DNA from: a virus
Lineage: Duplodnaviria; Caudoviricetes
DNA: 64,000 nucleotides
Virus record (IMG/VR): IMGVR_UViG_3300014208_000026
Coordinates: 96,001 to 160,000 of that record
Direction: 5' to 3' (one strand)
In this document: piece by piece, positions 12,768-62,604 of the stretch
Position numbering within the stretch: the stretch's first letter is position 1
How the letters are laid out: each line of letters opens with the position of its first letter
Notes under the pieces: generated by a model
Database searches by the model: none
Seen by the model: the letters and a program-made list of their open reading frames with translations, nothing else
What the model was told of the DNA's origin: nothing
Made by a program: the position numbers and the translations under genes

Positions 12768-13643
12768 ATGACTAACGTAAGTACCGCCCAGAAGCAAGAG
12801 ATCATCAGTCGCTACATCACCAGCCCCCAGGGCCGCGTCAAGCTGGCTGCCAGCATGACCCAGCCGCTTCGTACTCGGCGTGATTACACGTCGGTCGGCC
12901 GCAAGACTTTCCTGGTCGAGCAGCTTCCCGATGGCGCCTTGCCGCTGTACGATAAGGACCCCGACGTCACGGCGTTCGTGGTCGGCGAAGAAGGCGAGAA
13001 CATCCTGGCGGTCACGAAGCCTCGGCGCGTGATCTTCCCGCTGTTCGAGATCGCTTCGCTCCCCGAGATTCCTCTGACGCAGATCAAAGAACGTCGCTTC
13101 GATCTCATCGAGCGTGCTCAGGATCTGGCCCGTGCTCAGATCCAGGCCGCTGAGGATGAGCGCGTGTTCGCAATTCTGGACGCCATTGCCGTGGCGGGCT
13201 TTGATAGCCTTCCTGGCCAGATGAACCCTGACATCCCCGTCATTGCCCCCATCAGCCCGGCCGTCCTCGCGGATGCGTTCGCTCTGATCGAGGCTCATGA
13301 CCTTCGGGTTGCTCGTGTGTTCATGAATGCCCGCGATTACTCGGACCTGCGTAAGTGGGGCCGTGACATCCTGGACATCGAGTCCCAGGCTGCGCTGCTG
13401 AAGACTGGCCTGATGGCGACCCTCTGGGGCGCTCAGATCATCGTCAGCCGCCTTGTCCCCGTGGGCACCGTGTATGTCACTTGTGAAAGTGACATGTTTG
13501 GACGCATCCCCGTGCGTACGGAACTTACGGTTTTGAGTGCGGACGATCCCCGTGCGCGCACGATTGGGTTCTCCTGCTTCGAAAACCTGGGCATCGGGGC
13601 GTACAACCCCCGTGGCCTCACCCGTCTCACCGTAACCCGCTAG
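12768..13643 (+). CDS. Major capsid protein, HK97 fold (291 aa)
   Basis: GGAGG RBS; PLRTRRDY...GRK...PLFEIASLP...RRFDLIERAQ...AAEDERVF...LWGAQIIVS...ENLGIG pattern of large-phage MCPs; followed by a strong terminator. Confidence 0.9.
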   Translation: MTNVSTAQKQEIISRYITSPQGRVKLAASMTQPLRTRRDYTSVGRKTFLVEQLPDGALPLYDKDPDVTAFVVGEEGENILAVTKPRRVIFPLFEIASLPEIPLTQIKERRFDLIERAQDLARAQIQAAEDERVFAILDAIAVAGFDSLPGQMNPDIPVIAPISPAVLADAFALIEAHDLRVARVFMNARDYSDLRKWGRDILDIESQAALLKTGLMATLWGAQIIVSRLVPVGTVYVTCESDMFGRIPVRTELTVLSADDPRARTIGFSCFENLGIGAYNPRGLTRLTVTR

Positions 13644-13721: not shown

Positions 13722-13974
13722 GTGTCTGAAATAGGGACTCGCTATCCGGGCCTGTTCTTCAAAATCCCCTCATAGCATTTTCCGGTAGATGTTTGTTTAG
13801 ATCCCGATCCGTGCGGGCAGGTTTTAAGCCAGAGCCTCTCAAGGGTCCGGTCTTATTTGTTATCGGATGTTGAACTTTTTTCTGTTGCCCTGCCCCGCTA
13901 TAGAGTATAGTTATAACGGAACAGGAAACCGTCGGTGCCAGTTCAGCCGAGCCCGACCAGGAAAAGGAGTTCAC

Positions 13975-16900
13975 ATGAAGTTGACCCCCGAAATTCTCAA
14001 GGACCTGTATCTGGTGCAGTTGAAAACGGAGACTGAAATTGCCGGTATGTTCGGAACTTCCCAAGTCCAAGTTGGGCGCCTTCGTAAGAAGTGGGGCATA
14101 CCGACTTTGGGTAAGACAGGACGCCTGGAAAAATTGCTGCCTCCAGTTCTAACTTCCGAACAGGAAGAGGTTCTAATAGGGTCTCTGTTAGGGGATGGTT
14201 GTCTTAAAGGTATTTCGGAAAAGACGGCTCTGTACACGGAGACTCACGGACCTTCCCAATACGCCTATCTCGATTGGAAAGCCGAAATATTAGGTCCTTT
14301 TGCTCTAAGTGTTTATCCGACGATGAAAAGAGTAGGGGATAAAGAGTTTCCAGGTAGAGGCTTTACTACGCATGCTAGCACTGTTCTCAGGCCCTATTAC
14401 GATATGTTCTATCCTGCTCCGTCCCGTAAAAAGGTTTTTCCGGTTGATCTCTCCAAGAGGTTGACCCCTCTGGCTCTGGCAGTTTGGTATATGGACGACG
14501 GAAGTCTGGCAGGCACACACACTGCACGAATAGCTTTCGGACTGGACCCTTTAAGTCTGGAAAGGGCTTTACAGGCGCTACGTGATTTAGGGTTCAATCC
14601 TGTAGCCTACGGTAAAAAGGGCAATCAGGCTATTTGGCTCACGGGGGATACTCATCTGTTTTTGGACTTGACCGGCAAATACGTCTCAGAGCACATGCCT
14701 CAAAAGCTACCCTGTTGGACGGAAAGGCAGAAAGGAGATTTGAATGCCGAGAAATTAACACCGGAGCTGGCGGCTGAATTGTATTCTGGAAACTCTACAG
14801 TTGAGGATATTGCTGAAAAGTTCGGTGTCGGTACAAGCACCGTGAAACGCCGTTTGCGGGATGCTGAAACTCCGATGAGACGGTCTGGCCCACGTGATGC
14901 AGAGCCGGGGGATACTGCCATGCAGCCCCTTAGAGTTAAACCGAGTTTTCAGGAATGCGGGGTGGTTTTACCATGCCCTGACTACAACGGCCCTATAGAC
15001 AAGAGCAATTATCAGTGGGCAAAGAAAGCCGGATTGACTCCAGATACTCTACGGGTGATATATGCTAAGTACGGTGATGAAGAGATAGCTGAGCTATTCG
15101 GGGTTTCAGGTGTAGCCGTTGGAGTTCAGCGTAAGAAATGGGGCATTGAAAGTATCAGTGCCAGACAAAGAAGAGACAAGGTGGAACGCAAGGGTTTGCC
15201 CTCGCTCGACAACCTCACGCCTGAAGGGTTGAAGGTTCTTTCCAAAACTATGGGGGACCAGAAGATCGCTGCTATGCACGGAGTACAAAAGCCTGCGGTT
15301 TCTCGACTGAGGGAGCAGTGGGATATAGCGGCAACGTCTAAGTCTGAACGGGCCACTTCTGAAACGATACTGACGGATGAACAGAAAGAAGCCTGTATTG
15401 GAACACTTCTAGGGGACGCTCATCTTACAGAAAGCGGTAGCTTGAGAGTTTCGCACAGCCACGATCAGATCGGGTATCTGAAAGCTTTACGCGCTATTCT
15501 GGTTCCTTACGCTAGACCGATTCATTATTCTGAGTCTAGTATGCCTAGTGGCCAAGTGTGTTTCACTTTCGGTTTCAAGACGGTTCAGCATATGTGGTTG
15601 AAAGAACTCCGTAACATCTTCTATCCAGAGCCGGAAAAGGTGAAAGTATTCCCAGAGAGTATTATCCGCACTTTAACACCCCTATCACTGGCATACTGGT
15701 ATTTCGATGACGGTCACTGGGGTGATGTTCTATATATAGCCTTGGGTCCCATCTCAGATTATGAAAAAGAGTACATTCCAGTTTGGCTGAAAGACCGTTT
15801 TGGCTTTGACTCCTACATAAAGGGGAAACCCAACTGTCGACTGCTGTTCATTCGTGGGGCTTCTCATGAGATTTTCTTCAATCTGATCCGAAACTACGCC
15901 ATTCCAGATATGCTGTACAAGTTCCCGCCGAAGTACCGTCCTGCGGGTATTCTTCCCATCCACCCCGTTAGGACAACGCCGCAAATCAAGATCCCTCCCG
16001 ATCTGCTGGAGGGTTGTGAGGACTGGCTCTCTAAGACCTCTGTACAGCAAGAACAGACAGTCGATGATCTGTGCGGTTTCTGGCGGAGCCAGGGTTTCCC
16101 CCACTGTGAAATCCGCCCCGAGGAGCTGATTACTCTTTTGGAAGTTACTCCGGATCAGATAATCCATGAAGGTGTGATTCGACCCCGACAAGTCGGGCAA
16201 TCCCTTTGTCATGCTTTCATGCCTCATATCTGGAAGGCCCGTTCCAGGAGCAGTGAGCAAAGTCCTTTCGACCTATTCTCTGATGACACTACGCTCAAGG
16301 GAGCTTTGCGGTATCTGTTGGAGAAAGGCAGTAAGCCAACGGCTGCGGGATTGCGCGGGGCTCTTCGTTACTGGAGGTACTCAGGAGTTTACAATTTCCG
16401 GCCCTCCGCAGCTAAGGCTTTGGTGGACACCTATTGCGTTCCTGGAGGCACAGTGTGGGATCCCTGCGCTGGTTACGGCGGGCGTCTCTTGGGTACTTTG
16501 CTGTCCAGGAACTCCCCGAAGTACATTGCTTGCGAACCACAGTCTGAGACCTTCTGCCGACTGCAAGAGTTGGCAGGCTGGTTAGAGAAGTATCTCCCTG
16601 ACATTTCTTCCCGAGTGCAGTTGAACCACGTTCCCGCTGAGGAGTTCAAGTTGCCCGAGTACGTCGACATGGTTTTCACTTCTCCGCCGTACTGGCAGCA
16701 GGAGGTTTACGGAGAGGAAGAGACCCAATCTGGGATTCGGTACAAGACCTATGAGGCGTGGTTAGAGGGCTTCTGGAAGCCCGTGCTTCGACAGGCGGTA
16801 GCAAAGCTGAAAGCTGGTGGCTGGTTGGTTTTGAACGTCGACACTTTCGTTGCCAACCACAAGACCTATGACCTGCCTGGGGACACGATCGCTATCTGCA

Positions 16901-17667
16901 AATCGTTCGGGTTCGACAGGGAGCCGGAGACGTTGCGTTATGCTATGAACGGGGACAATTACGAATCAGTATTGTGTTGGAAGAAAGCGGTGGCTGTGGT
17001 TGAGGATTCTGTTCCCGTTCCCATTCCGTCGGTTCCGAATCAAGTGATTGTTTCCCGTTGTGAAAACTGCGGGATTACGGTTCCTATTGGTGGGATCAAG
17101 GACGGTAAGTGCCCTGAGTGCCGTGTTCCAGGAGGGCACCGGACGTGCTGTAAGGGCTGTGGCGAAGTGTTCCAAGCCGTTCGAAAGGACCGAGAGTTCT
17201 GCGATGAAGCTTGTAGGGCTCGTTGGCGTCGCAGAGAATTCCGCAAAGTCCATCCAGCCAAGACCACCCGCACCTTCACATGCCAGTTCTGTGGCAAGAA
17301 GTGGGAGTCCTCGGAACTTGGATCGCCAAACAAGTGTACCGAGTGTAAGGCCGCCAAGGAACTCGCGAGCCGAACCAAGGTCTGCCAGTACCGTCATTGC
17401 GGCCAGACTTTCGTCGACACGTCGGAAAAGAACAGCATGAGTTACTGTCACGTGGAACACCGCCGCAGAGAGAAGCTTCTTCGTTCCGGAATGGCCCCTG
17501 ATCTGAGCTATTTCACGAAGCCGGATCCCGTGCTCGACACGGCTACTCCTGCAATGCCCGCAAGCACTGACAGCCCGACAAGTCAGCCCAGCGTGTCTGA
17601 CTTGTTTGGCATGCCTCCCCGCTCGGACCCTAAGATCCACAGTTCTGATTCCGACTACTCCATTTAG
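13975..17667 (+). CDS. Fusion: HTH repeats + two LAGLIDADG endonuclease domains + SAM-dependent amino-DNA methyltransferase + C-terminal CxxC zinc fingers (1230 aa)
   Basis: AAGGAG RBS at ATG 13975; LIGSLLGDG...LAVWYMDDG; CIGTLLGDA...LAYWYFDDG; NFRPSAAK; motif I WDPCAGYGG; motif IV FTSPPY; several CxxC pairs. Confidence 0.85.
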   Translation: MKLTPEILKDLYLVQLKTETEIAGMFGTSQVQVGRLRKKWGIPTLGKTGRLEKLLPPVLTSEQEEVLIGSLLGDGCLKGISEKTALYTETHGPSQYAYLDWKAEILGPFALSVYPTMKRVGDKEFPGRGFTTHASTVLRPYYDMFYPAPSRKKVFPVDLSKRLTPLALAVWYMDDGSLAGTHTARIAFGLDPLSLERALQALRDLGFNPVAYGKKGNQAIWLTGDTHLFLDLTGKYVSEHMPQKLPCWTERQKGDLNAEKLTPELAAELYSGNSTVEDIAEKFGVGTSTVKRRLRDAETPMRRSGPRDAEPGDTAMQPLRVKPSFQECGVVLPCPDYNGPIDKSNYQWAKKAGLTPDTLRVIYAKYGDEEIAELFGVSGVAVGVQRKKWGIESISARQRRDKVERKGLPSLDNLTPEGLKVLSKTMGDQKIAAMHGVQKPAVSRLREQWDIAATSKSERATSETILTDEQKEACIGTLLGDAHLTESGSLRVSHSHDQIGYLKALRAILVPYARPIHYSESSMPSGQVCFTFGFKTVQHMWLKELRNIFYPEPEKVKVFPESIIRTLTPLSLAYWYFDDGHWGDVLYIALGPISDYEKEYIPVWLKDRFGFDSYIKGKPNCRLLFIRGASHEIFFNLIRNYAIPDMLYKFPPKYRPAGILPIHPVRTTPQIKIPPDLLEGCEDWLSKTSVQQEQTVDDLCGFWRSQGFPHCEIRPEELITLLEVTPDQIIHEGVIRPRQVGQSLCHAFMPHIWKARSRSSEQSPFDLFSDDTTLKGALRYLLEKGSKPTAAGLRGALRYWRYSGVYNFRPSAAKALVDTYCVPGGTVWDPCAGYGGRLLGTLLSRNSPKYIACEPQSETFCRLQELAGWLEKYLPDISSRVQLNHVPAEEFKLPEYVDMVFTSPPYWQQEVYGEEETQSGIRYKTYEAWLEGFWKPVLRQAVAKLKAGGWLVLNVDTFVANHKTYDLPGDTIAICKSFGFDREPETLRYAMNGDNYESVLCWKKAVAVVEDSVPVPIPSVPNQVIVSRCENCGITVPIGGIKDGKCPECRVPGGHRTCCKGCGEVFQAVRKDREFCDEACRARWRRREFRKVHPAKTTRTFTCQFCGKKWESSELGSPNKCTECKAAKELASRTKVCQYRHCGQTFVDTSEKNSMSYCHVEHRRREKLLRSGMAPDLSYFTKPDPVLDTATPAMPASTDSPTSQPSVSDLFGMPPRSDPKIHSSDSDYSI

Positions 17668-23923: not shown

Positions 23924-24373
23924 ATGGCTACTCTGAGAAGTGCGTGTGTGAAGTTGGCTTACGAGAATCCGGAACTTCGTCCTCTGTTGATGCCTTTGAT
24001 CAAGTTGGCAGGGAATCCGCCTAAGTACCAGGACTATGCGAAGGATAAGCAGAAGGCCGGAGAGAAGCCGTTGGACAAGGATGTCTGGGAGAGGAAGGTT
24101 CTCCACAAGAAGGGCCCTGTTAGTCCCTCCGGTCAGACGAAGGTAAAGATCCCCTGGGAGTTAGAGGATGTTCTGCACGAGTGGGGTGGCACAGGAGGCC
24201 CTCTGGATGATTTGGTTTCCAATAGGGCCATCACGTCTGACTCGCTGGACAGGGCAGTCAAGCACATCAAAAAGACATTGGCAGATCCGGATACCTCAAA
24301 AGGGGAGATTCGAGCTTTGAATAAGGCCATGCAGCTACTGAAGCCCGTTTTGGACAAGCACGAAAAGAAGTAA
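23924..24373 (+). CDS. Hypothetical protein with shared N-terminal leader (LRSACVKLAYENPELR...IKLAG)
   Basis: GGAG RBS; leader shared with the 32578 and 58539 genes. Confidence 0.75.
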   Translation: MATLRSACVKLAYENPELRPLLMPLIKLAGNPPKYQDYAKDKQKAGEKPLDKDVWERKVLHKKGPVSPSGQTKVKIPWELEDVLHEWGGTGGPLDDLVSNRAITSDSLDRAVKHIKKTLADPDTSKGEIRALNKAMQLLKPVLDKHEKK

Positions 24374-33120: not shown

Positions 33121-34203
33121 TTAGTTTCTGGCTAACCACTTTCCTACAATTTTCCTAACCAACATAGCTTTTCTAACTGCCGCCCTTTTACTCGGCCCTC
33201 CCTCATGAATCAACTCGATCTTCTCGACAGGAGCTTTCCCTACGACCTGGAAGTCCTTCACCCTGCCTGCGTCGAGGGTCTTTACGAGGTACTTTGTGTT
33301 CATGACTACCCGCCAAACGTCCCGTTCCTCGCTCGAACCTAAATCGGTTGCCAGACCGATGGCCCTATCTGCATCGGTGGTCAAGAAGATGTTCGAAGGA
33401 ACGCTATGAGCCCCTTCGTAGATTCGACGGTCTTTGGTTGGGCGGGCGGTGTAGAGGACGATCCGCTTACCTTGGTCGGAACTCCCTGGGCTACGGATTT
33501 CCTGGACCAAGGCGAAATAGTCTGCCTGTTCCTGTCCTCCGGAATCCCCGACGGGGAAGAAGTCCCTGTCTCCCCCTTCGAGCACGTCTTCCACTTCGGT
33601 GATCTTGCCGTGTTCGTCGGTAAAGACGGTGAAGTTAGCGTCGTGATCCCCCACTTCTATGCTGAAGACGTGGGAGGCTTGCATGCCTTCGTCGGTGTTG
33701 CCTGTCTCTGCTCGTATAGAAACGTGTTTCGTTTCGAAGAACGGTGCCCTAGAGATCGCTGCCTTGACTTGTGCCTGGACGGCCTTGGCATTTTTTAGAG
33801 TACCTTCCACGGTTTCTTTCTCGTACCCTGCAAATTCCTCCTTGAGTTGAGGGAAGGTTTGCGGGATGCCTTCTTCCAGTGTCTCTTCGAAGTCCATTAA
33901 CGTACGGACAAGGTGATAGAATTCGTCCCAGCGGGAGTGATCTCCTGAGTGGAGTGCCTTGGAAGAGACTTCGTTCAGCTCCAGGGCTACGGCACGGATC
34001 CCCTTCTGGTCTCGTTTACGGATGGGGTTGCCAACGTGAGGTTTGTCGAGCAGACGTTCCGCTTCCCTGGCGAGTTCCTCGGGGTTGTACTTTGTCTCGA
34101 ACTTCTTCTGGTTCCTGGCAAAGGAGTGGTCCAGGAGTTCTGCGTAGTAGTCCTTGGCCTTGGCTTCGAATCGGCTGAGGTTGATTGTCACGGTGGTGGG
34201 CAT
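33121..34203 (-). CDS. Hypothetical protein with a C-terminal ADP-ribosyltransferase-like segment and RKIVGKWL tail
   Basis: IVLYTAR...NIFLTTDADRA...VWRV...DFQV resembles the ART core strand order; follows a late-type promoter. Confidence 0.55.
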   Translation of the reverse strand: MPTTVTINLSRFEAKAKDYYAELLDHSFARNQKKFETKYNPEELAREAERLLDKPHVGNPIRKRDQKGIRAVALELNEVSSKALHSGDHSRWDEFYHLVRTLMDFEETLEEGIPQTFPQLKEEFAGYEKETVEGTLKNAKAVQAQVKAAISRAPFFETKHVSIRAETGNTDEGMQASHVFSIEVGDHDANFTVFTDEHGKITEVEDVLEGGDRDFFPVGDSGGQEQADYFALVQEIRSPGSSDQGKRIVLYTARPTKDRRIYEGAHSVPSNIFLTTDADRAIGLATDLGSSEERDVWRVVMNTKYLVKTLDAGRVKDFQVVGKAPVEKIELIHEGGPSKRAAVRKAMLVRKIVGKWLARN

Positions 34204-34225: not shown

Positions 34226-34246
34226 CTACTAGATCGGAAGCTATAG
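34226..34246 (-). promoter_or_regulatory. Putative late promoter CTAT-N13-GTAG (minus strand)
   Basis: Exact motif upstream of the 34203 gene. Confidence 0.65.
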
Positions 34247-34265
34247 GACAGATAGCTAGCGGGTG

Positions 34266-34275
34266 GGTATAGTAG
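34266..34275 (+). promoter_or_regulatory. GGTATAGTAG promoter-like motif
   Basis: Exact motif; divergent from the 34246 late promoter. Confidence 0.55.
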
Positions 34276-34304: not shown

Positions 34305-34565
34305 ATGGACGGTTTTCGTAGGCACGTTTTGTCTCTTGTGACCTCTTCGGAGAAGGGCCGTGAGGTTCTCAGGGAAGTCCTGGTGCCGGTGTATGTCGAT
34401 CCCGACATGGGATCTTTTGAGCTTTTTCCCTACAAGGAATTTTGGGAAGTTGTCAGTAAGGAGTCTATGGGTAAAGGGATTCCTTTGTGCGACGCTTACA
34501 TAGAGTTGGCGTCGGAGGATTTCAGTCCTGAGACAGGGCACCCTTTTCTTCGAAGAAAGGAATAG
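34305..34565 (+). CDS. Small protein, paralog of 34572; N-terminus weakly resembles the MCP N-terminal helix
   Basis: VTSSEKGREVL...EFWEVV...GHPFLRRKE. Confidence 0.7.
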   Translation: MDGFRRHVLSLVTSSEKGREVLREVLVPVYVDPDMGSFELFPYKEFWEVVSKESMGKGIPLCDAYIELASEDFSPETGHPFLRRKE

Positions 34566-34571
34566 AATACC

Positions 34572-34922
34572 ATGAGCATCCAGTACAAACCCGTGAATGA
34601 GATCGTCGAATCGTTCGTAAAGACCGAACTGGGCAGGGAGGCTCTCCGGCAGGCTGTTGTCTGGCCCCTGGCAGTTCGATTGGGGGAAGGATACCGGCCC
34701 GAGTTATCCCCCTACGAGATTCTGTCCTCTGAAGACTTCTGGAAAGAGGTTATGCTCTACGCTTTGACCCAAGGGCTGTCGGCGACAGGGGCTTTCTTGG
34801 AGTTGGCCGATCAGAAGCCAAGTTTGGAGAAGGGACACCCGTTCCTGAGGCTGAAAGAGAAGGAGTCGGAGCCCGAGAAGGCGTGGGATAGGGAGCGGGA
34901 AGCCCTGACGGTCCTTGGATAG
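34572..34922 (+). CDS. Small protein whose first ~35 aa resemble the MCP N-terminus
   Basis: NEIVESFVKTELGREALRQAVVWPLAVR vs MCP QEIISRYITSPQGRVKLAASMTQPLRTR. Confidence 0.7.
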   Translation: MSIQYKPVNEIVESFVKTELGREALRQAVVWPLAVRLGEGYRPELSPYEILSSEDFWKEVMLYALTQGLSATGAFLELADQKPSLEKGHPFLRLKEKESEPEKAWDREREALTVLG

Positions 34923-34932
34923 GGTATAGTAG
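34923..34932 (+). promoter_or_regulatory. GGTATAGTAG promoter-like motif
   Basis: Exact motif upstream of 34962. Confidence 0.55.
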
Positions 34933-34961
34933 AGGCTGGTAGTTTAAACGAGAGGTACTCC

Positions 34962-35264
34962 ATGAAACTGTCTTTGTGCCCTTGGGAGAGTGTTCGTGTC
35001 AAGGTTTCTTTGACTGAAGTAGAGCTGCACGAGGCGGTCTTGGACTACGTGGAGAAGCTTCACGGTCTGCACAAGTTGTCTGAGGACTATGAACAGAATC
35101 TGGTGCTGACTCCCTGCATTGGCCAGGATGTTGGAGGCTTTGATTTCATCGTCAGTCCCTCTGACGAGACCGACGGTGAAAATGTCTACGAAGCTTCCTG
35201 GGATCATGGTTTGAATCCCCGCCGGAGTGGAAAGGATTCTTTGACCGAACGAGAAGCGGAATGA
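34962..35264 (+). CDS. Hypothetical acidic protein (100 aa)
   Basis: GAGG RBS; ATGA overlap with the next gene. Confidence 0.65.
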   Translation: MKLSLCPWESVRVKVSLTEVELHEAVLDYVEKLHGLHKLSEDYEQNLVLTPCIGQDVGGFDFIVSPSDETDGENVYEASWDHGLNPRRSGKDSLTEREAE

Positions 35265-35764
35265 ACAATCCCTTCGCTAGCCTTTCCGAGAAAGTACACG
35301 ACCTCGAAGTCAGGGCCTCGTACCTTGAGACGGTAGCTTCGGTGTTGGCCAATCAGGTGATCGCGCAGTATTCGCAGAGGCTCCGGTCGATGAAGCGTAT
35401 CGAGAATCTGGAGATAGAGTCCCGAGAGGTCTTATCTATTCTGGCCGATTTGATGTATGCGGTTAAGGGGCTGGGGCAGAAGCCTTGGCTGGTTACAATG
35501 CCTTCTTCGGTTCTGAAAAGGTTGCAGAAGGAACTTGATCTATATCCCGCGGACGGCGATGTGGTTGAAGGCTCTAGTAGGGGGAGCGCTTTTGCGGGCA
35601 TGGTGTGGGGCGTTTCGGTCTTCGAAATCTATATCGAGAGCGATCCGGTCATGGTCTGGGGAGACGGGAACCCGTATCACACTGAGCCGGTAGTGTACGG
35701 AGTCCAGTTGACGGATCCCGGTATTCCGGAAGTACGGATGGAGGGCTTAAAATGTACACCTTGA
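35261..35764 (+). CDS. Protein with an MCP A-domain-like segment (167 aa)
   Basis: SILADLMYAVK...LVTM...LQK...LDL...AGMVWGVSVF vs MCP AVLADAFALIE...RVFM...LRK...LDI...MATLWGAQII. Confidence 0.65.
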   Translation: MNNPFASLSEKVHDLEVRASYLETVASVLANQVIAQYSQRLRSMKRIENLEIESREVLSILADLMYAVKGLGQKPWLVTMPSSVLKRLQKELDLYPADGDVVEGSSRGSAFAGMVWGVSVFEIYIESDPVMVWGDGNPYHTEPVVYGVQLTDPGIPEVRMEGLKCTP

Positions 35765-35925
35765 AGTGGCTGATCGAAAAGTCTGGACAGGTGCAGAGAG
35801 GCACTCGTGACGGGAAATACGTTCCGGCCCGTCCGGTGGTTCATTTCTTCTTGAGCCGATTGCGGGATGCGTGGGAAGTGCTCAGAGGCAGGGCGGATGC
35901 TTTCACATGGCCTGACGGGCAGTAG
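35752..35925 (+). CDS. Small hypothetical protein (57 aa; not in the ORF track)
   Basis: GAGGG RBS, ATG 35752, TAG 35923; MYTLKWL...PARP...RLRDAWEVLRGRADAFTW. Confidence 0.6.
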   Translation: MYTLKWLIEKSGQVQRGTRDGKYVPARPVVHFFLSRLRDAWEVLRGRADAFTWPDGQ

Positions 35926-35941
35926 GGGGATATAAAAAACC

Positions 35942-36463
35942 ATGGACGACAAGCAGACCGCAGAATTTAAGGCCCTCTGGGAAGGGCCTGTCCCGTCCAT
36001 TCTTGATATTCTACAGAGGGTCGAAGATCTGGAAGCCAAGGTGAAGCACCTTGAGGACATTAATGGAGTTTTCCCCGAAGAACCAGAGGAAGTAGAGGGA
36101 CCAGAGGCACTTCTGACTGCGGATAGTCCTTGCCTTCAGCCGAACCAGTTCCTGCTCGACGCCTATCCTGCAATGGTAGAGAAGGCAGGCAAGATCCCTG
36201 TCGAAGACGATGCGGATTTAGAATCCGTCTTGGATCTGTTCTCCTCTATCGAGCGGCACCGGCAACGTACAGTTATTTTCACTTTGGGGCTGAGAGCTTG
36301 GTCTGCATTGGAGAGGTTTTTGCCTCGGTGGTTGAACTCTTTTGGTAAACTGTACGGGGCTCAGGTTCTCGTGTCTCCGGAGTTCGAAGAGGATTTGGTT
36401 CTGGTGTGGGGAGACGCGGAGGAGGTCCAGGACCGGATCGTCGTGGGCTGTAGGATGGCGTGA
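35942..36463 (+). CDS. Protein with a coiled coil and an MCP A-domain-like C-terminal half (173 aa)
   Basis: DLFSSIERHRQR...RAWSALERF and KLYGAQVLVS...LVLV align without gaps to MCP DAFALIEAHDLR...RDYSDLRKW and TLWGAQIIVS...TVYV. Confidence 0.75.
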   Translation: MDDKQTAEFKALWEGPVPSILDILQRVEDLEAKVKHLEDINGVFPEEPEEVEGPEALLTADSPCLQPNQFLLDAYPAMVEKAGKIPVEDDADLESVLDLFSSIERHRQRTVIFTLGLRAWSALERFLPRWLNSFGKLYGAQVLVSPEFEEDLVLVWGDAEEVQDRIVVGCRMA

Positions 36464-36466
36464 CTC

Positions 36467-36670
36467 ATGCCTATAACAGAAGAACGGAAGCTAGCAGTGG
36501 TAGAATCTCTGTTTATAGCTGAGTTAAACGGAGAAGACGTCCGTAAGAGGTTGTGGGACGTTCTCCGAGAGGTTTTCGGCAGTGAGGTGGATGAATTCAC
36601 TTTGGCACAGGCTGCCAAGGAAATGCACGCTAAGATCAGGGCCTCTGTAGACCGCCTACCGCCTCTATAA
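36467..36670 (+). CDS. Small helical hypothetical protein (67 aa)
   Basis: Coupled to the upstream gene; hydrophobic pattern of the N-terminus loosely like the MCP start. Confidence 0.6.
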   Translation: MPITEERKLAVVESLFIAELNGEDVRKRLWDVLREVFGSEVDEFTLAQAAKEMHAKIRASVDRLPPL

Positions 36671-36698
36671 GCGGGTGATTTCTGGTGGGGTCTAGTCC

Positions 36699-37304
36699 TT
36701 ATTCCTCTTCGTCCGGTTCTCCCTTCCGAGCGTAGAGAGCCCAGCTTCCGCCGTCAGAATTCACGTACCCGTCCCCATCGCAGCGAGTGCATTCGGGGTG
36801 GGGCTTGTCCGAAGAGTTGCCAGAGAACTCACAGTAGAACCGGCCACGCTGATGAGTCCCGATTGCCTCTGCGTCCAGGGCCACCTTACCCTCCGCAATC
36901 CAGGCCAGCACCTTCTCTGCCGGAATTGGCTCGCGAGGCTCGCCTGCCGCTCCCGTCCACCAGTCCAGGCGCCCGTGGCAGTTGCATTCCCTGTCGGTTT
37001 CTTCGAGACTGCCCTGGCGGACCAGTTCGTACGTGCTATCTCCGTCCTTGTATTCCTTTGGCCACTCGGTGGCGGGGAAGTGCCCGCTGTTCGGGGCGAA
37101 GGCATACACGGGACAGTCCAGGCCGTAGAATTCGTAACGGGCACTCCTGCCCTCTTCGACGATCCACGGCACGCTATCGGGGTCAGGGTCCGTCCAGACC
37201 ACGCAGGCGCAGTCCTTGAGCCCTTCAGGGGCGTCTTCGAAGGAGTAGCCTCCCCCGTCCAGGTCGTAGGCTTCGTTCAGGTGCTTGATGCGATCGTCGT
37301 CCAT
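36699..37304 (-). CDS. Hypothetical protein (201 aa) with Cys/His zinc-binding motifs
   Basis: ATG 37304 just after the upstream stop; CNCH and CTRCDGDG. Confidence 0.65.
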   Translation of the reverse strand: MDDDRIKHLNEAYDLDGGGYSFEDAPEGLKDCACVVWTDPDPDSVPWIVEEGRSARYEFYGLDCPVYAFAPNSGHFPATEWPKEYKDGDSTYELVRQGSLEETDRECNCHGRLDWWTGAAGEPREPIPAEKVLAWIAEGKVALDAEAIGTHQRGRFYCEFSGNSSDKPHPECTRCDGDGYVNSDGGSWALYARKGEPDEEE

Positions 37305-37306
37305 GA

Positions 37307-37495
37307 TTAGACCCCGCTTTCTCTGTTGAGGAGTTCCCAGTTGTCCTGGCCTTGCTTTTCGACGACGGCGTCCACTTTCCTGGCCCATTCGAGCATTTGG
37401 TTTTCCGCCTTTCCGTTGTCGTCGACGAAACCAAGTTCGTCTAGGGTTCCTTCTAGAAGGGTGACGTAGCGGATTCGGTAGACGGGCTGTTCCAT
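37307..37495 (-). CDS. Hypothetical protein (62 aa)
   Basis: GAGGAG RBS; operon packing. Confidence 0.65.
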   Translation of the reverse strand: MEQPVYRIRYVTLLEGTLDELGFVDDNGKAENQMLEWARKVDAVVEKQGQDNWELLNRESGV

Positions 37496-45593: not shown

Positions 45594-45839
45594 ATGCTAT
45601 CTGTAGTTTTGCTCTTCTCATTCCTGTGGTTGGGCCAGTCTGTTCCGGAATGCCCCCAGGGCACTGCCCCCGCTCCTGCTTTGCAGTCGGATCCTTTCGT
45701 GCTCATCCCTGCCGAAGACCCTCCCGCGATGCAGATTCAGCAGGTGGTCCAGGACGCAGATATTCTTCAGCAGAGAGTTGAAATCCTCGAATCCCTCGTG
45801 CGCCAGAATAGAGACCAGCTTGCAAGGCAGGTCCAATGA
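45594..45839 (+). CDS. Small signal-peptide-bearing protein
   Basis: MLSVVLLFSFLWLG, Pro-rich linker, short coiled coil. Confidence 0.55.
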   Translation: MLSVVLLFSFLWLGQSVPECPQGTAPAPALQSDPFVLIPAEDPPAMQIQQVVQDADILQQRVEILESLVRQNRDQLARQVQ

Positions 45840-50522: not shown

Positions 50523-53500
50523 ATGGGTTTCCCCGGCAAGCAGTACGCGCCCCCTGGTGTCTACACTGAGACCACCACCGAGAATCCGGTCAGTGCGGTT
50601 CTCACGGGACTGAAGCTCCCCGTTTTCATGGGTGAGGGTAACGAGAACCTTGTGCAGACGGCACTTGAGGTTGTTCGTGGTTCTTCCGCTTCTGTGGACC
50701 AGCAGGTCGTGCAGGAGGACATGGACGGGCGTGCCGTGGTTTCGATCTCCGGTACTGGAGTCGTGACGCTCGGTGCTTTCGACGGTGTTCTGGACCGTAT
50801 CCAGGTTCGTAATTTCCCGCTGGTGTCCGGAGACGGCACTGGGGTTACGACCAACAGCCGCAACGCTGTGACGGTCACGATCAACCAACAGCCGATCGTC
50901 ATTCGGGCGGTTACTGGCGTCAATGGTGTCATCCAACTGGCCCAGGCTCCTGCTCTCGGCGATGTTGTAAGGGTTACTTACTTCTTCGACCGCACCGACA
51001 CTCTGACGACGGACACCGTCTCGGGTCAGGTTACAACGGACCCCGCGACGATCTATGGTGTGGTTGGTGTTGCGGACGTCGATGTGGGCGGGACTGAGAC
51101 TTTCGATTTCCTTTCGACGAACAACCAGTTGGTCCTGACGGTTGACCGCGAAGTGCAGACCACGATCACGATTCCGGTTGGGTCGTACTCGGCTCGGATG
51201 GTTGGGATCATCCTCGATTCTGCTGGTGTTGGTACTCTGACAGCTACTCGTTACGAAGACAACTTCGGTAAGTCGGCGGTTGTGCTTGTAGCGGACAATG
51301 ATATCACCATCGGGGCTGGCTCCGCCAATGCTGTACTCGGTCTCGTGGCAGGCCAGACCACGGCTCGTAACCGTACCTTCTATACCTACAACGGCCCCAT
51401 CGTCGACGGTTCCAACGGTGGTGTGACTACGACCGACCCGGGGACGGTGACGGTTCGTGTGGACGGCACTGCTGTAGTCCCCACGTCGGTGGACGGTTCC
51501 AGTAGGGCTGTGACTCTCCCCTACGCTCCGGCATCGGGTTCTACTGTCACGGTTACCTACTACTTCAATACGTGGCAGGACACTTTCGATTACCTCGCCC
51601 ACATTGGGGTTACGGACGTGACCCGTTGCGGTATCACGGCGGACCGCTCGGACTTCGTCGAGGGCGCTGACTTTGTGCTTCATGACGACAAGATCGTGTG
51701 GGGTACGGCTGCTCTCGTGGATGCTGGGACTACGGTATCGGGTTCCGGTTCCTTCGGATCGAACCAAATCACGCCGACCCTCGTGGACGTGCGGGCTTAT
51801 CTGGAGACCTGCAATACGGTCGTGGATACTTCGGTCACTCCCTCTGTGGTCAGCAAGCGAGTGTTCCAGCTTCCGTACCAGCCCACTACAGGTAACGGTC
51901 GCTCCACCCCGCTGGGTTCGAGCCTGTTCCAGTCGGTGTCGAATAACCGCATTGGTCTTCCGACTGATCGCCCTGACCTTGTGCTGGCTTACTGGGGTTA
52001 CAGCGTCCAGGATGCTCTGTCCCGAGGTGCCGTGACGGTAGTGAAGGTCGATTCGACGAACTCGACTTTCACGCTGGCTTCGGATGTGCCTCCGGATGCT
52101 AACGTCTACGCCACGTTCTACTACAACACGATCACGGACGCGACCTACACGATGACGTGTGTGACCCCCGGGGCCTCTGGTATCGGTACTTACACGGTTC
52201 AGGATTCCGCGGGTGATGACGTCTACGGTCTGACTTACAACACGGGTAGTAAGGGTTCCTCGCTGACGGGTATTGCCATTCAGTTCCCTTCGGGTTCTGA
52301 GTACACTCCGGATTTCAGGTTCGAGAGTGGGAGCCAGGGTCCGGTTGAAGAGGCAATTACCGTCCGGTTCGCCGCAACTCAGGACAAGCTGGCCAAGTAC
52401 GCTACTCCGGGTTACGGGCCTTACTACCCGATCTCGGGGGCTTCGGATCACGTGGGCCTTACGGTTGACGCCGCAGCCTACAATGTGGATCTTTCCACTC
52501 CTTCGGGGATTGCTGCAACGGGCGGTGGTTTCTTCGCCACCCTCGTCGGTGAAGAGGTCGTCTATACAGGTGGCGGGACAGCGGGTATCGTCGGTAGGAA
52601 CTTTGAGTTGGATGCCAACGAAGAGTTCAACCTGAAACTCGACGGGGTGACTTATACTGCGTCGTTCCCGATGAAGGCTGCTGCGACCCGTACGGTTGCG
52701 GACATGGCGTCTTACATCAACCGTGCAGTGGTTGGTGAGACAGGGGCTGCTCAGGCTGGTGGAGCAGCATCTATTACTCTGGCTTCCACGGCGAGTGATG
52801 TGGATGACTACTACGTAGGTTGGACGGTTTTCGTTAAAGCCGGTCCTGCGAACCACGACGTGCGAATCATCACCGCTTATAACGGCGGAACGAAAGTCGC
52901 TACGGTAGCTTATAACTTCACGGGCATACCTCTCATTACCAACACTTATACCCTGAGAAACATCAAGAGCGCGATGGGTGTTGCTCAGGCCAATATTGGT
53001 GGGTTGTCGACCGTTACTTTGGACACTTCGGCCAGTGCGGTAAATGACTACTACGTGGGATGGAAAATCTTTGTGACTACGGCTCTTGGAGTCTACTACG
53101 ACGAGAAGACCGTCACAGACTACGATGGGGCTACGAAGGTAGCTACGGTGAGTTCGGCTTATGGAGTACTTCCTGCTGCTACAGACCTCTACTACCTGTA
53201 TGATTTGACTCCCGTTCGTGCTAAGTACACCGCGGCAGGGCATTTTACTGGTAGCTACACCGTAGCTCTCGCTTCCGGTTTCCACACCCTTCGTTTCACC
53301 TATACCGGCTTCCCGACTACAGCAGCGAACGTCGTTGCTACCATTGCGGATGGGACTTACACGCCTTCCGCCCTTGCCGCAGCGGTAGGGGACGCCATCA
53401 ACAAGGCTTTGAGAGCCCATGCCAGTTTTGCTCTGGATCCGCCTCCGACTGTGGACGTTACGCTCAATGGTTCGGGTCAGTTGGAGTTCGCTTTCACCAA

Positions 53501-55991
53501 GTCCCCGTTGGACAGCAGTGCCGTGTTTGAGTTCGTTGCCACGGCGGCTCTTGCCGATGACTTCTCTCCCGTCGCCGGTATTTCTACGGATGATGCCACT
53601 GGTAAGGGTCAGGCCAAGATTATCGACGGTGCGGTGTCGACCTATTACTCGGACAGTAATGCCACGGAAGCGGCCCAGGATCGCTTGATCCTTCGTAACC
53701 GCCTTGTCCCTGGTAGTGCTCTGGGTAGCCCGTTGCCCTTCGCGGCCATGGCACAAACGGGTATTGAGGTTCTGGCGGGTTCGGCTAATGCCAAGGCGGG
53801 TCTCACCACAGGTTCTACGGGCGAGGCCGGTTGGAAGGCGACGGTTCTGCCTGCAACTCTGGTCGGTTCTGCCGTGGATACCGCCCTGACGGCTACCGTG
53901 CCTCAGGTTACGTTCTATGCTGATGGCGGCACTACGGATCAGAACAACATCTTCAAGTTCAATTTCGAAGGTACTCCTATTCAGGTTACCTTCGCAGATT
54001 CCACCGGAACGGCCATTGCGGCTGGAGCGTCGGCGGTTGTGCCTCTCTGCAATGACGGTGTCGCGACTGATTGGGTGGTTAAGCAGATCGCTGATGCCAT
54101 TGACACAGCCTTCGGTCTGGTTGCAGGCACTTCTCTGACCAACGGGTATGTTGCCCTCGAAGGAGATGCTGTCCGTTTCATGGGTAGTGTTTCCGATACC
54201 ACATCCGTAGTGACTATTGGGGCTGGTAATGCAAACTCCCTTCTGGGGTTCGTTGAAGGTACTACGGCGGTCCGCACTTCGGCTACGGCCAAGGCGATTG
54301 CCTCGGCTTGTATGAACCAGAACGATGTAACGGCTCCCGCTCTCACTGACTGGTTGAACACTAAGTTCACGGCGCCGGATGCTTCCAGTTTCGCAAAGGA
54401 GGCTCTGGCTTCCACGATCCTGGACGATGCTGGCCGTGAGTACTTGTTCTTCGAAAGCCAGGGTGCTCCTGGTGCTTACGGGTCCAGCACGAGCGTCTAC
54501 TGGACTGCCAGCATCACGGATTCCGTGCTTCTGCATGGGACTGGGGTCAATGCTGAAGTCGGTGATGGCGCTGTTGGTGACGACGGGGTCTCGGGCTACT
54601 TCGTGACCTCTTCGGTTTCTGACGGTTCGGGCTCGGCTAACACCTCTGTGTTCAATGCCGTTGCTGGTACCAGCTATGGTCAGGACGGCGTGGTTGGTCA
54701 GACCTATCGCGACGACGTTACGGGTCTGACGTTCACGGTTCTGCCTCTGGCTGGCGGGCAGAAGTACCCCACTGGGGTCAATGCCACGTTCCAGTTCCAG
54801 TGCCGTAAGACCTTTACGACGAATTCGAACATCCCGATCACGACGATCCCTGGTATCGAGCTTCTCGTGACGAACACCGCTTCGGTCGGGGCTGCGAACA
54901 CGGCCCTGCTTTCCACCTACCACCGGTCCGGCAATGAGCCTGGAATCGGGGAGTACTACTACGCGACCTACATTTACACGAAACAGAACTTCAGCACTGC
55001 TCTCTACACGAAGCTTTCGATCATCGAGCAGGCATTCGGAGAGACTAGCCCTGACAACCCCGTTTCCTTGGCCGCTCACCTTGCCATGCTGAACGGGGCG
55101 GTCATCGTCGGGATCAAGCAGATTCTGAAGGGCGAGAATGGGGTCCAGGGTACCGTGACGGCTTACAGGGATGCCATTGACGAACTCGAAGGTTCGCTCC
55201 CTGGTTCGGTCTACCCCGATATCCTGTGCTCGCTCCGTGGGGATAACCTGGAGCTGTACCAGTATCTCCTCCGGCACTGCGACTTGATGAGCAGCATCCG
55301 CTATCGGGCGGAGCGCACTGCGGTGTGCGGTACGGCCAGTGGCACCTCTCCGACCACGGTCCAGTCGTGGGCTCAGAACATCGGTGGGGCTCGGTTCCGC
55401 ATGATGTACCCCGATTCGGCCACGCTGAACCTGACGGATGCCCTGAACGTGACCACCGAATACTTGGTCGACGGTCCGTTCTTGGCTGCGGCTCAGATTG
55501 GGCGAGTTGCCTCTCCCAACGTGGACGTGGCGACTCCGTGGACCGGCATGAACCTCGTTGGGTTCACCGGCCTGGGTCGGAACCTCGATATCGTGACGAT
55601 GAACCAGATTGCTCAGAAGGGCGTCACGCTCGTCGAGTCTCGTCCCCCGAACCTGCGTATTCGGCACGGGCTCACGACTGACATGACCAACAATCTGACG
55701 AAGATCCCGACGATCTACCAGATCACCGATGAGGTCCAGCAGCGTACCCGTGACGCCATGGAGAAGTTCATCGGTGTCAAGTTCCTGCCGGGTATTCTGA
55801 GTCAGATCGAAGGTCGTCAGGCTCAGGTGTTCAAGTTCCTCGTGGACGCCCAGATCATCTCGGCTTACACGGGGATCCATGCGAGCATCGATCCTTCAAA
55901 TCCTACAACTGCGGACCTCAGCGCTGCATTTTCTCCTATCTTCCCCCTCGAAATGATCCTGGTCCGCTACTTTTTGCGGAGCAGCCTCTAG
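50523..55991 (+). CDS. Contractile tail sheath protein, very large (1822 aa)
   Basis: N-terminal PPGVYTE; C-terminal sheath-like domain ending FIGVKF...FSPIFPLEMILVRYFL; GAGG RBS; beta-rich central insert. Confidence 0.88.
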   Translation: MGFPGKQYAPPGVYTETTTENPVSAVLTGLKLPVFMGEGNENLVQTALEVVRGSSASVDQQVVQEDMDGRAVVSISGTGVVTLGAFDGVLDRIQVRNFPLVSGDGTGVTTNSRNAVTVTINQQPIVIRAVTGVNGVIQLAQAPALGDVVRVTYFFDRTDTLTTDTVSGQVTTDPATIYGVVGVADVDVGGTETFDFLSTNNQLVLTVDREVQTTITIPVGSYSARMVGIILDSAGVGTLTATRYEDNFGKSAVVLVADNDITIGAGSANAVLGLVAGQTTARNRTFYTYNGPIVDGSNGGVTTTDPGTVTVRVDGTAVVPTSVDGSSRAVTLPYAPASGSTVTVTYYFNTWQDTFDYLAHIGVTDVTRCGITADRSDFVEGADFVLHDDKIVWGTAALVDAGTTVSGSGSFGSNQITPTLVDVRAYLETCNTVVDTSVTPSVVSKRVFQLPYQPTTGNGRSTPLGSSLFQSVSNNRIGLPTDRPDLVLAYWGYSVQDALSRGAVTVVKVDSTNSTFTLASDVPPDANVYATFYYNTITDATYTMTCVTPGASGIGTYTVQDSAGDDVYGLTYNTGSKGSSLTGIAIQFPSGSEYTPDFRFESGSQGPVEEAITVRFAATQDKLAKYATPGYGPYYPISGASDHVGLTVDAAAYNVDLSTPSGIAATGGGFFATLVGEEVVYTGGGTAGIVGRNFELDANEEFNLKLDGVTYTASFPMKAAATRTVADMASYINRAVVGETGAAQAGGAASITLASTASDVDDYYVGWTVFVKAGPANHDVRIITAYNGGTKVATVAYNFTGIPLITNTYTLRNIKSAMGVAQANIGGLSTVTLDTSASAVNDYYVGWKIFVTTALGVYYDEKTVTDYDGATKVATVSSAYGVLPAATDLYYLYDLTPVRAKYTAAGHFTGSYTVALASGFHTLRFTYTGFPTTAANVVATIADGTYTPSALAAAVGDAINKALRAHASFALDPPPTVDVTLNGSGQLEFAFTKSPLDSSAVFEFVATAALADDFSPVAGISTDDATGKGQAKIIDGAVSTYYSDSNATEAAQDRLILRNRLVPGSALGSPLPFAAMAQTGIEVLAGSANAKAGLTTGSTGEAGWKATVLPATLVGSAVDTALTATVPQVTFYADGGTTDQNNIFKFNFEGTPIQVTFADSTGTAIAAGASAVVPLCNDGVATDWVVKQIADAIDTAFGLVAGTSLTNGYVALEGDAVRFMGSVSDTTSVVTIGAGNANSLLGFVEGTTAVRTSATAKAIASACMNQNDVTAPALTDWLNTKFTAPDASSFAKEALASTILDDAGREYLFFESQGAPGAYGSSTSVYWTASITDSVLLHGTGVNAEVGDGAVGDDGVSGYFVTSSVSDGSGSANTSVFNAVAGTSYGQDGVVGQTYRDDVTGLTFTVLPLAGGQKYPTGVNATFQFQCRKTFTTNSNIPITTIPGIELLVTNTASVGAANTALLSTYHRSGNEPGIGEYYYATYIYTKQNFSTALYTKLSIIEQAFGETSPDNPVSLAAHLAMLNGAVIVGIKQILKGENGVQGTVTAYRDAIDELEGSLPGSVYPDILCSLRGDNLELYQYLLRHCDLMSSIRYRAERTAVCGTASGTSPTTVQSWAQNIGGARFRMMYPDSATLNLTDALNVTTEYLVDGPFLAAAQIGRVASPNVDVATPWTGMNLVGFTGLGRNLDIVTMNQIAQKGVTLVESRPPNLRIRHGLTTDMTNNLTKIPTIYQITDEVQQRTRDAMEKFIGVKFLPGILSQIEGRQAQVFKFLVDAQIISAYTGIHASIDPSNPTTADLSAAFSPIFPLEMILVRYFLRSSL

Positions 55992-62031: not shown

Positions 62032-62604
62032 ATGGCAAAGTGGTTTGTCTACGTAATTCAAAGCAGGGCGCCTCGGTACTCGAAATCGGGGAAGCCTCTG
62101 CCTGGATTCTTTTACGTCGGGTGTACAACGGATCCTGTCAGGAGACTCCGCGAACACAATGGTGAGCTAGCCAACGGAGGGAAATACACCTCTAAACATA
62201 GACCTTGGGTCCCGCGTGCTTTGTTCAAGTTTTACGCTGACCGTCGAGAAGCCATGAAAGCAGAGTACGCCCTGAAGCACGGCAAGCGAGGGATTGCCCG
62301 TACTCAATGGACGCCCGAGGATTCTGTTTGGTGCAGGGGGTTGGGGCCGGATGACCCTTGGGTCTTGTGCGGAGGGGCTAGGCTAGCCTCGGAAATTGAA
62401 CAGGTTCCTGACGAGTTCGGAATCGCTGTAGACGAGGCCATAGATTCCGAAACCCAGGGCTGCGAGGCTCACCAGCATGACGAGGAAGTCAGGGCCGATG
62501 GTCTCTTGCCGTCGGATGATCTCAAGGGCAGTCTTGATGCATCCGAACAGCCCGAAGCCGAAAAGCACAGTCCAGCAAAAGACAACGAAGGCGGGGTCGG
62601 TTGA
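62032..62604 (+). CDS. GIY-YIG nuclease, SLX1/UPF0213-like
   Basis: WFVYVIQS...[18 protein letters not shown]...GGKYT...RPW...AMKAEYALK. Confidence 0.88.

Follow-up and report, generated by a model that had tools for sequence, protein, structure and literature searches.

The DNA analysed here, called the window, is a 64,000-nucleotide stretch that runs from base 96001 to base 160000 of a linear virus record 257 kb long (IMG/VR record IMGVR_UViG_3300014208_000026; CheckV completeness estimated at about 49%). Its source is a phage-G-like huge phage from groundwater. Two small open reading frames (ORFs) of the window, 35261 and 35942, each named by the position of its first base, are on balance best understood as truncated and highly divergent forms of an HK97-fold major capsid protein (MCP). 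In this reading they comprise the spine helix and the A-domain, with a long N-terminal helix added or retained. The derived portion most likely corresponds to roughly MCP residues 95-250, the segment from spine helix to A-domain. Both ORFs lie in a seven-gene stretch (34305-36670) that is a lineage-specific accessory cassette. The evidence for the present window is suggestive, not decisive. The two genes, with lengths in amino acids (aa), are as follows.

35261..35764, plus strand, 167 aa: orphan; a long helix over about aa 4-45 precedes a helix-strand-helix-strand-strand unit that, in the ESM Atlas model, is similar to the spine helix and A-domain of HK97-fold MCPs
35942..36463, plus strand, 173 aa: orphan; helices at the N-terminus, an acidic linker over about aa 40-68, then a C-terminal domain (about aa 85-168)

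The two are best read as distant paralogues, each an N-terminal long helix or coiled coil followed by an alpha/beta domain. They lie 180 nt apart, are comparable in size and architecture, and share the motif V.VWGD. Neither is a bare fragment, as the N-terminal long helix or coiled coil is an addition to each.

Sequence comparison of ORF 35942 with the MCP

The reference in all comparisons was the MCP encoded at 12768..13643 (plus strand, 291 aa). The initial annotation of the window had correctly identified it. The protein matches phrog_2522, "major head protein" (E 3e-50), and the solved phage G capsid protein gp27 (PDB 6wkk; E 8e-62). Its relatives are found in uncultured huge phages (LR745208.1, 85% identity), Tunturiibacter phage Tunturi_5 and Bacillus phage G, and versions with 83-88% identity occur on over 560 IMG/VR contigs, some of them about 200-620 kb in size. 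Following standard HK97 (gp5) anatomy, we take residues of about 140-245 to be the A-domain. In pentons and hexons, the A-domain forms the centre.

The initial annotation had aligned 35942 to this MCP by hand, and its ORF coordinates and quoted blocks are exact. Without gaps, aa 98-126 of 35942 share 9/29 identities with MCP 169-197, and aa 136-156 share 8/21 with MCP 218-238. Smith-Waterman comparison with the MCP gave z = 3.0, with 3 of 300 shuffles reaching the score, and a single-pair BLASTP gave E = 0.036. For the MCPs tried, which came from its own lineage, Tunturi_5 and phage G, the 35942 C-domain gave z values between 2.5 and 4.3. Identity to the MCP is about 27% over some 60-70 aligned residues.

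An MCP-family profile was then built from 26 aligned sequences, those of phage G, Tunturi_5 and two mycobacteriophages among them, and compared by hhalign. Here 35942 scored 28.4, with aa 98-160 aligned to MCP 169-242. Shuffled versions averaged 13.6 (standard deviation 2.4), none of 200 reached 28.4, and the reversed sequence scored 11.1. Since shuffles underestimate the tail of real sequences, a genome-wide ranking was also run over every ORF of 50 aa or longer in the 257-kb record. These number 1438 with the MCP included, so that ranks are among the remaining 1437. With the MCP profile, 35942 ranked first. The reverse search, with 35942 as template, returned the MCP as the best of 1437 ORFs (31.6; runner-up 25.7). 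Judged by these alignments, the likeness is reciprocal and stands above the genome background by a modest margin. To that moderate degree the proposal that 35942 resembles the A-domain part of the phage's own MCP holds up, but the likeness is too diverged for any library profile to detect.

Greedy hhalign alignments of both 35942 and 35261 were colinear with MCP residues of about 95-270, the one for 35942 pairing approximately aa 85-168 with MCP 156-249. The N-terminal helix of 35942 has 7/19 identities to the MCP spine helix, which is not significant (score 12.3, reached by 44 of 150 shuffles). The protein is strongly acidic, with 35 D/E to 16 K/R, a property also compatible with other roles. 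Two weak tblastn matches of 35942 elsewhere in the genome were dropped. One, at 165.2 kb, has no ORF; the other, at 25.5-25.9 kb, falls in a 462-aa protein without a family match.

ORF 35261 and its possible link to ORF 35942

By sequence, 35261 appears weakly tied to 35942. Smith-Waterman comparison of the two gave z = 4.3, and 35261 ranked fifth in the genome with 35942 as the hhalign template. Its tie to capsids runs through a predicted structure only, the ESM Atlas model described below.

Separately, the C-terminal 72 aa of 35261 (35546-35761) align to residues 256-320 of a 1822-aa protein encoded at 50523-55991 on the plus strand (Smith-Waterman score 71, z about 7 relative to shuffles). 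G, V, T and D are abundant in the aligned segment, which coincides in part with a weak match to DUF2460 (tail-protein-like). The likeness may be compositional, or it may reflect a shared beta-strand module.

Structure models of the two ORFs

The ESM Atlas model of 35942 has a predicted local distance difference test (pLDDT) value of 0.57. All ten of its listed neighbour sets were capsid families or capsid-named clusters, among them PF25209, PF05065, gp23, YonB, N4 gp56 and a Linocin_M18-bearing capsid cluster. These alignments covered residues of about 60-173, with template modelling (TM) scores by query of 0.42-0.47. The Atlas model of 35261 (pLDDT 0.65) also drew capsids in ten of ten listed neighbour sets, over residues of about 25-160 and with TM by query of 0.45-0.52. 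Alignments for the two models span 104-128 residues. The model of 34572, another cassette gene, served as a control and drew PIN, HNH, HAD and similar folds. A phage orphan thus does not draw capsids from the Atlas search by default. The MCP region aligned is the same in the sequence and structure tests, which argues against a chance resemblance.

Models were also made with AlphaFold2 (AF2) and were poor, with pLDDT 50.6 for 35942 alone and 49.2 for 35261 with a two-row alignment. Both consist of a long helix, a helix, a strand, a helix and then two or three strands, which is the order that would be expected of a spine helix and A-domain. They leave the Atlas result neither confirmed nor refuted, and we treated them as uninformative. 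A complex prediction of the MCP with aa 66-173 of 35942 scored 0.00, with a partner pLDDT of 34, and counts neither way on binding.

Distribution of the cassette genes

In large protein collections, 35942, 35261, 34572 and 34305 are orphans without detectable relatives. A word-indexed search of 5.8 billion proteins returned self only, both for 35942 and for 34572 with 34305. An exhaustive HMMER search of 1.84 billion representatives with a profile of 35942 and 35261 found only self and two long coiled-coil proteins. Searching 50,697 phage records by tblastn gave nothing credible. The flanking genes 33121-34203 and 36699-37388 were likewise unmatched. The initial annotation had suggested looking for similar fragments in related phages; a six-frame search of nine related huge-phage records with the 35942 and 35261 profile gave no match, while the phage's own genome, as positive control, yielded both genes.

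Other assemblies carry the same phage at 99.7-100% identity, and the runs that contain it are groundwater metagenomes. Two groundwater DNA runs gave identical sequence, and so offered no variation usable for a selection test; no RNA run is listed as carrying it. Over 1423 bp compared, the present record and a Joint Genome Institute (JGI) contig of the same phage differ by four single-nucleotide polymorphisms (SNPs), all within 35261, at 35292, 35324, 35335 and 35700. Three are non-synonymous (K11I, L22V, G147V) and one is synonymous.

The MCP is unusually conserved, in contrast to the accessory cassette 21 kb away, which is unique to the present phage. Directly 3' of the MCP is a 1266-aa ORF (13867-17667, plus strand) in which repeated LLGDG-type (LAGLIDADG-like) segments and helix-turn-helix-like repeats can be seen by eye. 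Its C-terminal part looks, also by eye, methyltransferase-like and zinc-ribbon-rich.

Organization of the cassette and its other genes

The cassette consists of seven small plus-strand ORFs flanked by two minus-strand genes, and the gene callers of public assemblies call all seven. Besides 35261 and 35942, it contains these features.

34305..34565, plus strand, 86 aa: paralogue of 34572, without credible MCP likeness
34572..34922, plus strand, 116 aa: aa 10-37 borderline against MCP N-arm 11-38, remainder unrelated
34962..35264, plus strand, 100 aa: no family match and no MCP signal
35752..35925, plus strand, 57 aa: phrog_21988 member, not capsid-like
36467..36670, plus strand, 67 aa: last cassette gene, no MCP signal
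34245..34275, plus strand: promoter-like site AGGACA-17-TATAGT from a consensus scan, sigma-70-like, including GGTATAGTAG at 34266
34923..34932, plus strand: second GGTATAGTAG copy, 30 nt upstream of ORF 34962
36660-36677: weak terminator-like hairpin at the end of ORF 36467

A purine-rich stretch, a putative Shine-Dalgarno sequence, precedes each of the seven starts. The stop of 34962 and the start of 35261 overlap in an ATGA, and the start of 35752 overlaps the end of 35261 by 13 nt. The motif GGTATAGTAG occurs six times in the 257-kb record, where by our own estimate about 0.5 copies of a 10-mer would be expected, and all six lie 25-40 nt upstream of an ORF start (window positions 34266, 34923, 39953 on the minus strand and 62018; record positions 45735 and 161929). 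It is a candidate promoter class with a -10 element TATAGT, apparently distinct from the late motif mentioned in the initial annotation. Because copies stand at 34266 and 34923, and copies are always upstream of ORFs, the cassette probably has two promoters of one class. The motif upstream and the 21-kb distance from the head module had both been reported earlier and are borne out here.

The initial annotation went further and read the stretch as a cluster of five capsid fragments, with likeness to the MCP N-terminus in 34572 and more weakly in 34305 and 36467. For 34572, the quoted block is again exact (aa 9-37 against MCP 10-38, 8/29 identical without gaps). Smith-Waterman comparison with the MCP gave z = 2.0. 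In hhalign against the MCP profile it scored 24.2 (aa 10-37 to MCP 11-38), a value reached by none of 200 shuffles, but it ranked only fourth genome-wide, with two evidently random ORFs as well as 35942 above it. A hidden Markov model (HMM) of MCP residues 1-60 put 34572 first, with a genome-wide E of 0.045, for a cut that was chosen after the fact. In the reverse search, with the alignment of 34572 and 34305 as template, the MCP came only 63rd. At the level of sequence, then, the likeness of 34572 to the MCP N-arm is borderline.

ORFs 34305 and 34572 are genuine paralogues (tblastn E 2e-11; Smith-Waterman z = 20), and the GHPFLR.KE motif at the end of 34572 is common to both. The likeness to the MCP claimed for 34305 did not survive, as its hhalign score of 16.5 was reached by 13 of 200 shuffles, which is background. 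Smith-Waterman z values against the MCP were near 0 for every cassette ORF other than 35942 and 34572, and the N-terminal similarity proposed for 36467 is thus at background. No family match was found for 34962 in Pfam or PHROGs.

ORF 35752 belongs to a separate conserved family. It matches phrog_21988 with E 1.6e-13, over 1-57 of the 58 profile positions. This is a family of 57-76-aa proteins of jumbo phages with the conserved end ...WVPARP...AW.VLTG.ADA..WP.GQ. By tblastn, 35752 has matches in 11 records from eight jumbo phages, with homologues in Ralstonia RP12/RP31, Vibrio pVa-21, Erwinia AH04, Salicola SCTP-2 and Shewanella SXP01. None of the genes next to the family member in RP12, pVa-21 and AH04 is homologous to 35261 or 35942. 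The best reading of 34305, 34572, 34962, 35752 and 36467 is as small accessory proteins unrelated to the A-domain-like pair.

Elsewhere in this phage, no fewer than seven proteins that otherwise differ begin with a common leader about 30 aa long (MK.L+AS.V+LAYE.PE.R.ELL.VL, with K-x-A-G/A at its end). An HMM built from three of the leaders gave eight matches in the genome (E 1e-21 to 4e-4), the eighth near a C-terminus. The sites are at window positions 23924 and 32578 (plus strand) and 58539 (minus strand) and at record positions 62535, 63309, 64571, 67416 and 82362. From its sequence, the leader looks like a targeting or propeptide tag. A cargo leader of the T4 IP type on the cassette proteins was considered and rejected, as the leader HMM misses 34305, 34572, 35261, 35942, 36467 and the MCP.

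Alternative explanations

Several results weigh against descent of 35261 and 35942 from an MCP. The lead of 35942 over the genome is small, as the next ORFs score 26.2, 25.3 and 24.2 in hhalign against the MCP profile; the first two are evidently unrelated and the third is 34572. Searches of Pfam and PHROGs with E up to 10 gave no capsid profile for 35942, 35261 or their C-terminal domains, and a PDB sequence search with the proteins found no capsid. The initial annotation had looked to profile or structure matches and to shuffled controls for a decision; 35942 beats 200 of 200 shuffles and the Atlas neighbours of both ORFs are capsids, but Pfam and PHROGs yield no match. It had also held that 35261 resembles the same MCP region. 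The Atlas model agrees, whereas the sequence does not, since its hhalign score of 15.7 against the MCP profile is reached by 30 of 200 shuffles and is not above chance. The link between 35261 and 35942 is itself not clearly above the genome background. Both Atlas models are of low confidence, at pLDDT 0.57 and 0.65 and TM of about 0.5, and a structure drawn by a language model is not evidence independent of sequence likeness. The AF2 models, searched against PDB, BFVD and Atlas, returned helicase-like, SepF, Smr and helical proteins, with no capsid and nothing significant. The two genes have no homologues, and the only variation seen is the four SNPs in 35261, three of them non-synonymous.

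On such grounds, 35261 and 35942 could be unrelated, fast-evolving orphan alpha/beta proteins with coiled-coil N-termini, drawn as capsid-like by the language model without common ancestry. A helix-strand-helix-hairpin pattern with G..V.V is common, and the finding arose from scanning many ORFs by eye. The silence of the profile libraries, the modest margin over the genome, the insignificance of 35261 against the MCP and the other alpha/beta folds that the AF2 models give at a similar TM of about 0.5 all fit a chance resemblance. It accounts poorly for the reciprocal first rank of 35942 and the MCP among 1437 ORFs, for a 35942 score that no shuffle of 200 attains, for capsid-only neighbour lists of two adjacent genes against random folds for a third cassette gene, and for sequence and structure tests that point to the same MCP region. 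We regard coincidence as rather unlikely, though a serious contender. Common ancestry could also have ended in decay, leaving degraded remnants of a capsid gene, duplicated or foreign, that are no longer selected and have no function of their own. This would suit the extreme divergence, the lack of conservation in relatives, the three non-synonymous SNPs to one synonymous between samples and the position of the N-arm-like 34572 upstream of the A-domain-like 35261, colinear with the MCP. Yet every ORF is intact and has a start codon and a ribosome-binding site, one ATGA coupling is present, and both A-domain-like genes carry an extra N-terminal helix and have clean ends. The cassette moreover has its own repeated promoter-like motif, the ORFs in between show no MCP likeness, and that of 34572 is not robust. 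Decaying relics are, in our estimation, very improbable.

We give almost no credence to the array as first proposed, in which at least five genes (34305, 34572, 35261, 35942 and 36467) would be stand-alone N-terminal and A-domain fragments of the MCP. Two of the four best hhalign matches to the MCP profile do fall within the 2.4-kb cassette, and the shuffle test and the N-terminal HMM speak for 34572. The random ORFs ranked above that gene, the 63rd place of the MCP in reverse and its unrelated Atlas neighbours speak against it, and 34305, 36467 and 34962 are at background. We confine the reading of MCP derivation to 35261 and 35942.

Comparison with known capsid-fold proteins

In the comparison with the phage's own MCP and phage G gp27 (PDB 6wkk; phrog_2522; PF25209 Phage_capsid_4), 35942 aligns with MCP 169-242, where the A-domain has its helix-strand-helix-hairpin core, and the Atlas neighbours of both 35942 and 35261 are MCP families. 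The two proteins differ from the MCP in being about half its length, 21 kb from the head module and not conserved in relatives. A complete HK97 fold was not found, as both align only to MCP residues of about 95 to 250/270, and by profile they fall in none of the capsid Pfam or PHROG families PF25209, PF05065 and phrog_2522. As far as alignments and models indicate, they would be missing the elements by which capsomers are locked into a shell (N-arm, E-loop, C-terminal P-domain strands), and therefore should be unable to build one. Because these shell-building parts are missing, and because the genes are neither in the head module nor conserved with it, we infer that they are not core structural proteins.

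In phage T4, the vertex protein gp24 is a paralogue of gp23 that is full-length, structural, conserved and encoded in the head module. The two situations would be alike in that one phage genome has a second capsid-fold, MCP-derived gene. They differ in that gp24 is full-length, clearly homologous, structural, conserved and in the head module, none of which is true of 35261 and 35942.

Among proteins already described, the Family 4 "A-domain encapsulins" (PF08967, DUF1884; PDB 2PK8) come closest; they are A-domains that exist on their own in cellular organisms (Andreas and Giessen 2021, PMC8346489). Like 35261 and 35942 in the reading preferred here, these are stand-alone counterparts of the HK97 A-domain that have lost the N-arm, E-loop and P-domain, and they are proposed to oligomerise like capsomer centres (PMC8346489). 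They are about 100 aa long and known from hyperthermophilic archaea and a small number of Bacteroidetes, where each lies downstream of an enzyme gene in a two-gene operon (PMC8346489), whereas 35261 and 35942 are phage-encoded, 167-173 aa long, extended by an N-terminal helix and part of an accessory cassette among small orphan genes. A PF08967 match was sought in Pfam for both and none was found; the two are not Family 4 members.

Proposed function

The sensors Avs7, Avs8 and Avs10 attach to the A-domain at its capsomer-forming face (PMC13581612). Our preferred mechanism is therefore a soluble mimic of that face. Under it, 35261 and 35942 would be soluble, probably oligomeric, helix-tethered mimics that bind a partner which normally binds the capsomer-forming A-domain face of the MCP. 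The most likely partner would be a host sensor of the MCP A-domain, for which the mimic would act as a decoy or sponge. Less likely, it would be the MCP of the present or a competing phage, making the mimic an assembly modulator or poison. That the role is one of decoy, poison or assembly modulator is what we infer; the Avs7/8/10 data keep the decoy idea plausible. Interference with MCP recognition would fit the arms race with capsid-sensing defences such as CapRel, Lit/Gol, Avs7/8/10 and the capsid-sensing forms of Thoeris and of the cyclic oligonucleotide-based antiphage signalling system (CBASS). Literature searches and a 2026 review of counter-defence (PMC13728456) gave no counter-defence made of a capsid fragment.

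A broader proposal, which we think distinctly unlikely, is that huge phages repeatedly turn pieces of their own MCP into soluble accessory proteins. The present case would then be two coiled-coil-tethered A-domain mimics, made from a non-late promoter, that soak up sensors of the A-domain face (Avs7/8/10-like or others) or poison the assembly of rival capsids. If true, it would be a principle of counter-defence or competition so far undescribed, with the decoy made from the trigger itself.

If real, 35261 and 35942 would represent a phage-encoded stand-alone A-domain derivative and would add a new example of capsid-fold exaptation beside the encapsulins. They would also indicate that the structural genes of huge phages can be a source of orphan genes in the same phages. 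Many bacterial defences are triggered by the MCP, and several of them grip the A-domain; soluble A-domain mimics, if real, would be a new class of counter-defence or an inter-phage weapon.

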